Positions 6,001 to 9,000 of a DNA stretch of 12,746 nt are shown here, in pieces. Position 1 is the stretch's first letter, and the number at the start of each line of letters is the position of its first letter. A program made the position numbers. The stretch comes from Candidatus Diapherotrites archaeon CG10_big_fil_rev_8_21_14_0_10_31_34 (GTDB lineage Archaea; Iainarchaeota; Iainarchaeia; Iainarchaeales; 1-14-0-10-31-34), in NCBI GenBank assembly GCA_002763225.1, contig PFAI01000026.1, forward strand, positions 426-13,171, in the 5' to 3' direction.

Positions 6001-9000
6001 ACTGGACAAGAGGATCATTAAAATTATCTAAATGCCCTGAAGCCTTAAACACTTTTTCTGGAAGGATTTGACAGCCATCAATTTCAACAAAACCTTCTTT
6101 TTCAACCAAATCTTTTCTCCACGCATCAAGAATTCGGTTTTTTATTGCTGTTCCATAAAAGCCATAATCCCAGAAACCACTAAATGAGTCTCCGTAAATC
6201 TCGGCTGAAGGAAAAAAAATACTTTTCCTTAAAGCCAAATCCATTAAAACTTCAGACTTTTTTTGTGCCATAATATCAATTAACTTAGAATTCTTTATAA
6301 ATAATTTGCGATAAAAAGCTTATAAGTGCATCAAATAAATAAGGGATTAAAAGAAAATGCAATAAATAAAAAATTAAGTGATTTAAATGAATAAAGAATT
6401 AAAAGCAAAATTAACCAAAAAAACCAAAGAAAGAGTTGCAGAAACATTTACAGCAAAAGACGTTCATGTAATCAAAGCAGTTTCTTTAATTGAAGAATTA
6501 GATAAAATGACTAACCTGATTTCAGAGAACACAAGAGAATGGTATTCAACTCATTTCCCTGAACTAAATTCTTTAGTTGAAGACAATGACATTTATTTAA
6601 ATCTTGTATTGCTTGGAAACCGAAAAAACTTCAATGAAAAAAATGTTTTAGAAGCATATAATAACAGAGAAAAAACAAAAAAAATTCTTGAAAAAGCAAA
6701 TCAATCAATGGGAGCAGAATTAAGCCAAGAAACTTTAACTCAAATCAAAGGACTGGCAGAAAAAGGATTAGAAATAAAAAAACAAAGAAATGAATTAACA
6801 AAATTCATTGAAAAAGAAATGAAAGAACTGCTTCCAAACTTTTCTGAATTAGCTGAACCATTAATTGGGGCAAGAATGCTTTTAAAAGCCGGTTCAATAA
6901 AAAAACTTGCTTTAATGCCTTCATCAACAATCCAATTGCTTGGAGCAGAAAAAGCATTATTTAATCACATTAAGTCAGGAGCAAAGCCTCCAAAATACGG
7001 TTATCTTTTTGGTCATCCAATGCTGAAACAAGTTAAAAGAAGCGAACAAGGAAAGTTTGCAAGGACTATGGCAGGAAAACTAAGCATTGCAATTAGAACA
7101 GATTTTTTTGGCGGAAAAGCAAATGCTGAAGAACTAAAAAAAGGATTAGAAAAAAGGATAACAGAATTAAACACAGAAAAAAAGAAAACAAATGAAACAA
7201 AATAACTTAAAAAAATTAAAACGAAAATAAAAAAAGGAAAAAAATTACTAAAATTGAAAAAAACAAAATAAACAAATAAAGGAAAAAATAAATTAAAAAA
7301 TAATTGAAAAAATATGAGTTAAATTATCAAATGAATTTTTATGAAATTAAAACAAATTTTTGACGGAATCTATTCTGATGGAAGAAAAAACTATACTGAA
7401 AACTTAGTTAAAGGAAAAAAAGTTTACGGAGAAAAACTTTTGACTTTCAAAGGAAAAGAATTTAGGGAATGGAATCCTTTTCGTTCAAAATTCGGAGCAG
7501 GACTAAAAAAAGGAATTCCTTCTCCAATCAAACAAGGCCAAAACATTCTCTATTTAGGTGCAGCAGAAGGAACAACAATTTCTCATATCTCTGATATAGT
7601 GAAAGAAAAAGGAATGATTATTGGAATTGACATTAGTGCCAGAGTAATGCAAAAACTAGTTGAATTAAGCGAAGAAAGAGAAAACTTAATTCCTTATTTA
7701 GTTGATGCAAATAAAACAGACGAAACAAAAAAAGAATTAAATAACGTGGAATTTGATTTTATGTTTCAGGATATCTCCCAAAAAAACCAGACAGACATTT
7801 TTTTGAATAACGCTAAAGTTTTTCTGAAAAAAGGCAAGCCTGCAATGATTTCAATTAAAGCAAGAAGCATTTCGCAAAAAAGCTCAGCTAAAATTTTGCA
7901 AGAAGAAAAACAAAAACTGGAAAAAGAATTCATTGTAAAACAATCTGCTTTTTTAGAGCCATTCCAAAAAGATCATCTACTTGTTTACTGCGAAAAAAAA
8001 TAAGGGAAAAAGCTAATCTTAAAGGCAAATTTAAATAAACTAAAGAACAATAGTTTTGCATGAACTCAAAAAATTTATTTGGATTATTAATTATAACAAT
8101 TTTATTTTTTGGATGTATTGATCCAACCCCAATAGAAAAACAAGTTTTAGATGACTCAAAATCAACTGCTGTTGGAGTAAACGAAACAGTTAAAGGAAAC
8201 AACGAATTTGCATTAGAAATGTATTCAGAATTAAACAAGGAAAGCGAAAATTTATTTTTTTCTCCTTGGAGCATTTCAAGCGCATTAGCAATGACTTTTG
8301 AAGGAGCAAAAGGGCAGACAAAAGAAGAAATGAAAAATGTATTGCATTTACAGGAAAACGATTTGGAAAGAAGAAGCGGTTTTGCAAAAATATATAATCT
8401 GCTGAACAAAAATAATTCAGAGTACGAGCTTTCAACTGCAAACGCTTTATGGGCACAAAAAAATTACCCTTTTTTAGAAGACTATGTTAATACAACAAAA
8501 AAATATTATTCAGCTGAATTCACTAACATGGATTTTATAGGAAAAACAGAAGAATCAAGAAAAACAATTAATTCCTGGGTTGAAAAACAAACAAACGACA
8601 AAATAAAAAACTTGATTCCAGAAGGAATACTTAATCCATTAACAAGACTTGTGCTGACTAACGCAATTTACTTTAAAGGAGACTGGGAAATCCAGTTTGA
8701 CAAAACAAAAACAAAAAAACAAGACTTTAAAGTAAACGAAAACACTACAGTTCAGGTTGACATGATGTCATTAAAAAAAGGTTCAGAAGAATTTAATTAC
8801 GCTGAAACAAATGAACTACAGGTTCTGCAGATGAATTACAAAGGAAACGAGCTTTCAATGATTGTACTGCTTCCAAAAAACAGTATTTCAGAAGTAGAGT
8901 CAATGCTTTCAGCAGAAAAACTGGAAGAATGGAAGAAATCAATGCATGAAAGAGATGTATATGTTTATTTTCCTAAATTCGTGTTTGAAACAAAATATCT

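Follow-up and report, generated by a model that had tools for sequence, protein, structure and literature searches.

A shortened Nop5 in Iainarchaeota keeps one N-terminal helix and occurs with an intact fibrillarin and two box C/D guides

Introduction

How could a Nop5 protein that begins just before its coiled coil hold the fibrillarin encoded next to it? The question is raised by a locus of Candidatus Diapherotrites archaeon CG10_big_fil_rev_8_21_14_0_10_31_34 (Iainarchaeota), which we examined in a window of 12,746 nt (contig PFAI01000026.1, positions 426 to 13,171; this whole stretch is referred to below as the window). The N-terminal domain of Nop5 is described in two reviews as the fibrillarin-binding part of the protein (PMC3608112, PMC7994747), and more recent work derives it from the RuvC domain found in IS110 transposases, put to a new use in binding fibrillarin (PMC11213020, PMC12045711). 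An earlier note on this DNA had reported a box C/D ribonucleoprotein (RNP) whose Nop5 is without that domain. The observation is real, and its uniqueness and strength were overstated; Nop5 proteins without the N-domain are broader in range, and the loss less absolute, than first described.

Results

The nop5 locus and its product

The genes and protein regions of interest in the window are as follows.

4775-6271, minus strand: class II tRNA synthetase gene, divergent from nop5
6272..6386, no strand: AT-rich spacer of 115 nt between the tRNA synthetase gene and nop5, without room for an N-domain
6387..7205, plus strand: nop5, encoding a 272-aa box C/D scaffold (Pfam Nop, PF01798) with the N-terminal domain apparently cut to its last helix
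6393..6452, plus strand: N-terminal amphipathic helix, residues 3-22, putative α6 equivalent and predicted fibrillarin anchor (AlphaFold2, complex model)
6456..6830, plus strand: coiled coil with tip subdomain, residues 24-148 (model helices H24-53 and H114-148)
6834..7175, plus strand: C-terminal Nop RNA-binding domain, residues 150-263, with the motifs STIQLLGAEKALF and PPKYG (invariant columns)
7341..8003, plus strand: fibrillarin, an intact 2'-O-methyltransferase of 220 aa (PF01269, E 4e-67)

The start of the 272-aa protein, as given in the earlier note, is firmly placed by the DNA. The spacer 5' of nop5 holds stops in all three frames, and an in-frame TAA directly abuts the ATG. The product has the Nop domain and coiled coil of an archaeal Nop5, with PF01798 matching residues 34-259 (E 4e-61) and with P178, S180, Q183, G186, A187, A190, F192, P202, K203, and G205 of the Nop domain invariant in 73 homologues. 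When compared with solved structures, the product matched archaeal Nop5 proteins of Pyrococcus and Sulfolobus best, at 208 bits and with the alignment beginning at residue 13, versus 82 bits for Prp31. An alignment-based AlphaFold2 model (pLDDT 91.4) contained a helix at residues 3-22, a coiled coil from residue 24, and no strands at all; it was used instead of a single-sequence model, which was set aside at a pLDDT of 39.4. Foldseek with the alignment-based model returned as top hit 3pla_A, a Sulfolobus C/D RNP, and by likeness to the solved Nop5 fold the coiled coil would be expected to dimerise. Nine of the nearest homologues carried a phylum name, eight of them Diapherotrites (Iainarchaeota) and one Micrarchaeota. 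A single-protein scan of genome contigs with Nop5 gave three close loci, and no RNA holder is listed for the nop5 locus.

Absence of the N-domain throughout the phylum

The residues ahead of a conserved tryptophan, W52, number 43-63 in 117 of the 120 nearest homologues, which bears out the common start previously claimed for that same number; the other three have 88, 97, and 155 residues there, in the form of charged or low-complexity N-terminal extensions. Each of the 101 phylum genomes sampled holds one Nop gene, extending an earlier count of 51 of 51, and reading back from W52 in the DNA of these genomes, an in-frame stop is reached within 75 codons in 89, after 76-100 codons in 6, and beyond that in 6. 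Among 150 broad archaeal representatives, by comparison, at least 100 residues precede the same tryptophan in 117, 76-99 in 2, 37-75 in 18, and fewer in 13, these last being treated as fragments. The full-domain set of 115 used below consists of these 117 less P0144, which was misaligned, and P0182, which has a low-complexity extension. The truncation of Nop5 is real and phylum-wide.

Profile searches gave the same picture within their reach. The Pfam N-domain, previously recorded in 0 of 61 cases, was over cut-off in none of the 101 phylum genomes with PF21572, a profile of weak reach that matched three of four archaeal controls and exceeded the cut-off in only one. At E < 1e-3, a purpose-built N-domain profile made from 64 full-domain proteins picked up 40 of 51 N-domains kept back for testing, and it was blind to the short N-domains, similar to that of A. 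fulgidus, in L077, L079, L082, L083, and L085. Searched against the 14,544 frames of this genome, it reached a best E of only 0.029, and it had no match at E ≤ 1 in any open reading frame of the 101 phylum Nop5 loci. With a full-length profile, a free-standing N-domain was absent from 59 of 59 genomes, the three second matches being front portions split off from Nop5 genes of the tip-less kind. A separately encoded domain, raised as a caveat by the earlier note, was thus found neither in this genome, which is 81% complete, nor in the 101 loci or the 59 genomes; since the purpose-built profile misses five short N-domains, it could also overlook a separate piece that has diverged very far. In 17 of the 101 genomes (family f7) the tip of the coiled coil is absent as well, leaving 43 residues versus approximately 99, and these proteins are as short as about 205 aa, L034 being an example.

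The missing core and the helix that remains

How much has been lost depends on the structure chosen for comparison. Residue 13 of the protein had been placed opposite residue 126 of Pyrococcus Nop5, and this alignment was recovered with 3nmu_A and 2nnw_A, but in 4by9_C the same residue aligns to 113. As the two values come from chains of Pyrococcus, the numbering is construct-dependent, and the loss amounts to about 100 residues relative to Pyrococcus. The earlier statement that solved archaeal Nop5 proteins have an N-domain of ~115 residues is too narrow: the solved Nop5 of A. fulgidus has only ~48 residues more, residue 5 of a phylum homologue aligning to its residue 53. The extents given in PMC7962484 are 1-123 for P. 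furiosus, 1-132 for S. solfataricus, and 1-71 for A. fulgidus, where the domain is much smaller.

In the archaeal complexes described in that source, the α6 aromatics W104, F105, and Y108 of P. furiosus Nop5 ring a conserved tyrosine of fibrillarin, Y102, and fibrillarin α4 is wedged between Nop5 α5 and α6, touching β1; in yeast, breaking the β1 contact abolished binding (PMC7962484). The part of Nop5 that is lost is the β-sheet core with α5 and β1, a core described as a dead RuvC domain in PMC11213020 and PMC12045711. No folded α/β domain of this kind is left in the protein, whose N-domain has dwindled to the last helix. The retained helix appears from alignment to correspond to α6, and would therefore be one of the known fibrillarin contacts. 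The description of this Nop5 as lacking the fibrillarin-binding domain consequently holds for the core but not for α6, which is kept.

The retained helix has been remodelled. Numbered on the 272-aa protein of the window, positions 5, 9, 10, 17, and 21 are hydrophobic in 92-100% of 120 homologues. A hydrophobic residue stands at positions 4, 8, and 12 in 80, 72, and 86% of the full-domain proteins (n=115), as against 9, 1, and 1% of the nearest, Iainarchaeota-like homologues (n=120) and 0, 10, and 0% of a first Micrarchaeota-like set (n=120); in the short groups these positions have shifted to polar or charged residues. This face of the helix probably once packed on the core that is now missing. 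Position 9 has changed in the opposite sense, from 21% hydrophobic in full-domain proteins, which have a small residue there, to 100% in the Iainarchaeota-like and 99% in the Micrarchaeota-like proteins, where it is Leu (88%) or Phe (99%). The α6 aromatic pair has no counterpart, with aromatic residues at no more than 3% at any of positions 1-10 in the 120 homologues. The site of fibrillarin Tyr102, which by alignment is I94 in the protein encoded here, is occupied in 42 phylum homologues by Phe (20), Ile (10), Val (6), Tyr (5), or Ala (1), and the arrangement of α6 aromatics around a fibrillarin tyrosine is thus not found in this Nop5/fibrillarin group.

Fibrillarin and a model of its complex with Nop5

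In 92 of the 101 phylum genomes, a fibrillarin gene is present in the stretch retrieved around nop5. K50, D144, K173, and H212, presumably the catalytic set of the enzyme, are invariant in 42 of 42 phylum homologues, and D144 aligns to D150 of the Pyrococcus protein. The homologues are 199-235 aa in length, with no extension able to stand in for an N-domain.

A complex model of full-length Nop5 with fibrillarin scored 0.80, residues 1-21 of Nop5 being docked on residues 92-136 of fibrillarin. Of 157 solved pairs, 116 reach the mark applied, as do 2 of 215 mismatched ones; the mark is rough in the present case because our own alignments were used. Contact agreement across runs was at least 85%, with a partner pLDDT of at least 84. 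Residue 9 of Nop5 is among the best-placed pairs and sits on fibrillarin residues 94 and 117-119, and the modelled interface agrees with the α6/Tyr102 site of the solved complexes as described in PMC7962484. The earlier note gave a score of 0.78 and a best control of 0.00, and the latter was not reproduced: on rerunning, the best of three controls scored 0.39, above the floor of 0.32, and this control was the same Nop5, with its helix, docked on an unrelated protein. Since like complexes have already been solved (1NT2, 2NNW, 3ID5), the score may reflect memorised structures and is to be read as likeness, not binding. Contact between the helix and fibrillarin is a prediction of the model.

Two box C/D guides and their targets

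L7Ae is encoded elsewhere in the genome (G000:C60:11004-11369). A strict box scan of this genome gave three C/D-like matches, two of them with targets.

C44:17762-17817, minus strand: guide 1, candidate double guide for 16S C1402 and the 1061-equivalent, with C/D'/C'/D boxes
C35:9380-9433, plus strand: guide 2, candidate guide for C34 and the D-loop of elongator tRNA-Met, with C/D'/C'/D boxes

The earlier note had located both guides at these coordinates, with the same boxes, and had found guide 1 in five of five congeners and guide 2 in four of five; all of this was recovered. The targets named there (C1402, C34, and a D-loop site) likewise stood, but as an incomplete set, in that guide 1 also addresses 1061 and the two arms of guide 2 fall on the same tRNA-Met. 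Because neither 16S nor 23S rRNA is assembled in this genome, the 16S targets were taken from a congener (G019), to which guide 1 pairs perfectly through a D arm of 9 nt and a D' arm of 11 nt. Its D+5 bases align to positions 1401 and 1060 in an E. coli 16S gene of 1541 nt, which we take to be C1402 and G1061 when the usual count of 1542 nt is followed; the 1061-equivalent base is A in this lineage. The pairing had been said to include a lineage-specific change, and is indeed perfect, but the guide U opposite 1405 would pair with G too, making this weak covariation. The C1402-guide pattern occurs in 54 of the 101 phylum genomes, and in 14 of 17 in the tip-less family, versus none for the reversed pattern; it was not found in the other 47, all six genomes outside the order among them.

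The D and D' arms of guide 2 each pair perfectly over 10 nt with a single elongator tRNA-Met on contig C58, a tRNA that ARAGORN missed. The D arm is directed to C34 and the D' arm to the D-loop, at G15 by the D+5 rule. This D' arm also fits tRNA-Ile(UAU) on contig C44. The tRNA-Met guide pattern is present in 8 of 101 genomes, one of these probably by chance, versus none for the reversed pattern. In four other families the D' register moves to C13 or A14, and the D' arm may for that reason dock rather than mark a fixed site.

No Rfam family reached its gathering score with either guide, the best match being sR2 at E 0.017. The third C/D-like match (C64:9363-9423) was dropped, having neither a target nor an Rfam match, and further guides are not claimed, as a relaxed scan yielded 9 candidates where shuffled controls gave 4, 7, and 4. 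Judged by their boxes, pairing, and conservation, both guides are real. The genome thus encodes an intact fibrillarin, L7Ae, and boxed guides within the 9-12-nt complementarity to rRNA or tRNA looked for in a box C/D sRNP.

Short Nop5 proteins outside Iainarchaeota

Loss of the N-domain had been presented as phylum-wide, which holds; it is not confined to the phylum, being seen in Micrarchaeota and some Methanocellales too. Two metagenome Nop5 genes, L097 and L098, have a stop just upstream, and the two sets of 120 relatives gathered with them have 2 proteins in common. The relatives with a taxon name are Micrarchaeota in 12 of 13 and 24 of 24 cases, and 117 of 120 and 119 of 120 relatives have fewer than 100 residues before the tryptophan, most of them 48-59. 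On these sequences, the loss is common to Micrarchaeota and not a property of Iainarchaeota only. One further protein, P0359, is labelled ANME-1; its sequence resembles the Micrarchaeota group, and it was not counted as another lineage.

In Methanocellales, the RefSeq Nop5 of Methanocella conradii (P0237; WP_014406372.1) is 246 aa long with 65 residues before the tryptophan, and all five members of its cluster are 244-246 aa. Among the proteins related to it, L077, L079, and L082 retain a short N-domain, whereas in L080 and L081 an in-frame stop lies close upstream, with the L080 start beside the end of another gene and a divergent gene at L081. The short and full forms fall within a single clade (SH-aLRT 99.9), which indicates an independent loss in some Methanocellales, M. 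conradii probably among them. Nop-core trees, from one of which P0233 was left out, have a weak backbone in which Iainarchaeota and Micrarchaeota are not joined and family f5 and P0257 are placed apart; given that weakness, the two phyla are compatible with one loss or with two.

Discussion

Comparison with known systems

The Nop5 proteins of P. furiosus (2NNW, 3NMU, 4BY9) and S. solfataricus (3ID5, 3PLA) share the coiled coil, tip, and Nop domain with the window protein, at 39-43% identity and TM 0.80-0.88. Their systems likewise have the gene next to that of fibrillarin, L7Ae, C/D guides, and the last N-domain helix. Relative to them, the window protein is without the ~100 N-terminal residues and the α6 aromatic pair, and fibrillarin Tyr102 is mostly replaced. 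A. fulgidus Nop5 (1NT2) already has a small N-domain by the extent cited above, and a tip-less Iainarchaeota Nop5 aligns over residues 5-204 to A. fulgidus 53-253 with no long gap. A. fulgidus Nop5 retains ~48 residues before the helix and has no tip, whereas the window protein has none before the helix and keeps its tip.

Prp31 of the U4 snRNP and TasA of the TIGR systems, as described in PMC11213020 and PMC12045711, also combine a coiled coil and Nop domain without a RuvC-like N-domain. Membership with either was rejected: Prp31 is the weaker match by bit score and shares 25-26% identity, whereas the window Nop5 adjoins fibrillarin, as do most of its phylum counterparts, and keeps the putative fibrillarin-contact helix. 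The guides here are of the K-turn C/D kind, not U4 or a TIGR array, TasA being set apart by description only. Guide 2 is like sR-tMet, a C/D RNA known in Haloarchaea to guide Cm34 of elongator tRNA-Met (PMC4033218); the likeness is one of target, and guide 2 differs in its second arm, on the D-loop of the same tRNA.

A probable working RNP on one helix

The reading we prefer, to which we assign a probability of roughly 0.7, is that of a working C/D RNP in which fibrillarin is hung on one remodelled Nop5 helix. Conserved guides, invariant catalytic residues, and linkage of nop5 with the fibrillarin gene indicate a system under selection. In such an RNP, L7Ae would bind the kink-turns of the small C/D guides, and, by analogy with solved homologues, the Nop domain would bind the L7Ae-RNA surface while the coiled coil dimerises. 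Fibrillarin would be held by the single amphipathic helix at Nop5 residues 1-22, the old α6, which would have shed the hydrophobic face meant for the missing β-sheet core and acquired a bulky hydrophobic side chain at position 9. Expected products by the D+5 rule are Cm1402 and the Am1061-equivalent in 16S rRNA from guide 1, and Cm34 of elongator tRNA-Met from guide 2, whose second arm would pair with the D-loop of the same tRNA.

A bolder proposition goes beyond this, and we hold it at only slightly better than even odds: that one remodelled 20-residue helix may be necessary and sufficient to recruit and position fibrillarin, and that the transposase-derived dead RuvC domain would be dispensable and was shed repeatedly, in Iainarchaeota, in Micrarchaeota, and independently in Methanocellales. 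One family would then run guided methylation on a tip-less Nop5 of ~205 aa, the smallest C/D scaffold encountered here.

Three other explanations were weighed against the hanging of fibrillarin on the helix. That the short protein is an artefact, arising from a wrongly assigned start, a frameshift, or a pseudogene in decay, is very improbable in general and already refuted for this window, where the stop stands directly ahead of the ATG, nearly all of the nearest homologues start alike, and the rest of the protein is strongly conserved. What speaks for such an artefact is that 6 of the 101 open frames extend more than 100 codons upstream of W52, and that the M. conradii start is known from a protein record, not DNA; the long frames, for their part, have no N-domain match. 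It is also unlikely, though less remotely so, that the helix by itself is too weak and that the hold on fibrillarin is made good by an unrelated adaptor protein or by a strongly diverged N-domain encoded elsewhere. The solved interfaces do involve α5 and β1 besides α6 (PMC7962484), the profiles are limited in the ways given above, and this genome is 81% complete. Against an added piece, the helix face meant for it is now polar or charged in two phyla, the searches of this genome, the 101 loci, and the 59 genomes gave no N-domain match, and fibrillarin carries no compensating extension.

Somewhat less improbable than an adaptor, and still doubtful, is an RNP that serves mainly as an RNA chaperone or recruits fibrillarin loosely and transiently, with methylation partial or lost at some sites. 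This would suit a genome with just two convincing guides, a guide 2 D' arm that keeps pairing while its D+5 base shifts among G15, A14, and C13 across families, and a C1402 guide whose D' arm looks degenerate in the tip-less family; chaperone roles have also been proposed for double guides (PMC4644070). The D arm nevertheless stays in fixed register on C1402, as the pattern demands, with no genome matching the reversed pattern, and the fibrillarin that lies beside nop5 in most loci has kept its catalytic residues unchanged.

Implications

The system suggests that the RNA-guided methylation machine exists in a naturally minimal form. A natural one-helix form distinguishes the part required for holding the methylase from the inherited scaffold, makes the contribution of the domain and hinge to catalysis and turnover testable, and provides a compact scaffold on which programmable RNA methylation could be built. 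It also shows a route from Nop5 to a Prp31-like architecture. The surprise is tempered by the facts that the helix is a known contact, that the A. fulgidus domain is already shrunken, and that the guides are of known kinds. A search of the literature, covering mostly open-access papers and PMC11213020 exclusive of its supplements, found no report of a Nop5 reduced to the α6 helix, and the term "DPANN" is absent from PMC7994747 and PMC11213020.

Atlas clusters of 267-269 aa, designated "commonest Thermoplasmatota", have a length that fits either a lost N-domain or a lost tip.

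Predicted targets of the two C/D guides

Both guides are encoded outside the window in the same genome (G000; contigs are designated by C numbers), and the tRNA target of guide 2 lies on a further contig.

G000:C44:17762-17817, (-) strand, C/D guide 1
G000:C35:9380-9433, (+) strand, C/D guide 2
G000:C58, ~5040-5116, (-) strand, elongator tRNA-Met with a variant T-loop

The assignment of guide 1 to 16S C1402 in the earlier note was upheld, and to it we add a second predicted target that the note lacked, the 16S 1061-equivalent in helix 34. In some genomes guide 1 is multicopy or found at contig ends (G013:C45, C44, and C30; G103:C139; G107:C58; G052:C18).

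The elongator tRNA-Met on C58, which went undetected by ARAGORN, bears both targets of guide 2. Within the genus of G000 (g1), the base at which the D+5 rule predicts methylation by the D' arm of guide 2 is G15, the usual archaeosine site. The TGT model PF01702 was unmatched in all four g1 genomes (G000, G012, G019, and G101), and a match to it is present in G003.

Variation in Nop5, fibrillarin, and the C1402 guide across the phylum

In family f7, which accounts for 17 of 101 genomes, Nop5 (~205 residues upward) has neither the coiled-coil tip nor the N-domain core. Of these 17 genomes, 14 retain the C1402 guide pattern, and the D' arm of the guide looks degenerate. Fibrillarins of family f5 are N-terminally shortened to 199-203 residues and are without the VYGE hairpin; the D' arm of the C1402 guide differs in this family.

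L034:2956-3573, L048, and L141, examples of family f7 Nop5 loci
L039:3733-4329, L052, and L040, examples of family f5 fibrillarins

Many Nop5 proteins of the phylum carry long C-terminal tails of low complexity, up to ~290 residues (for example at loci L032, L037, L051, and L106-L118), and those read have a high content of R, G, S, and P.

Neighboring genes and other tRNA genes

Two further genes of the window were noted.

8060-9319, (+) strand, serpin (PF00079, E 1e-125), immediately 3' of the fibrillarin gene
1827-4205, (-) strand, 792-residue open reading frame

The N-terminus of the serpin is lipoprotein-like. By inspection, the sequence of the 792-residue product reads like a fusion of glucose-6-phosphate dehydrogenase with a 6-phosphogluconate dehydrogenase-like domain.

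Elsewhere in G000, one tRNA-Ile gene has a UAU anticodon.

G000:C44, ~2598-2678, (-) strand, tRNA-Ile (UAU)

The TiaS family model PF08489 was matched in none of the five genomes of the family searched, and all four archaeal controls were positive. The tRNA genes on C13, C15, C16, C23, and C47 contain long, AT-rich introns of ~100-250 nt, which have repeat-like segments in common.
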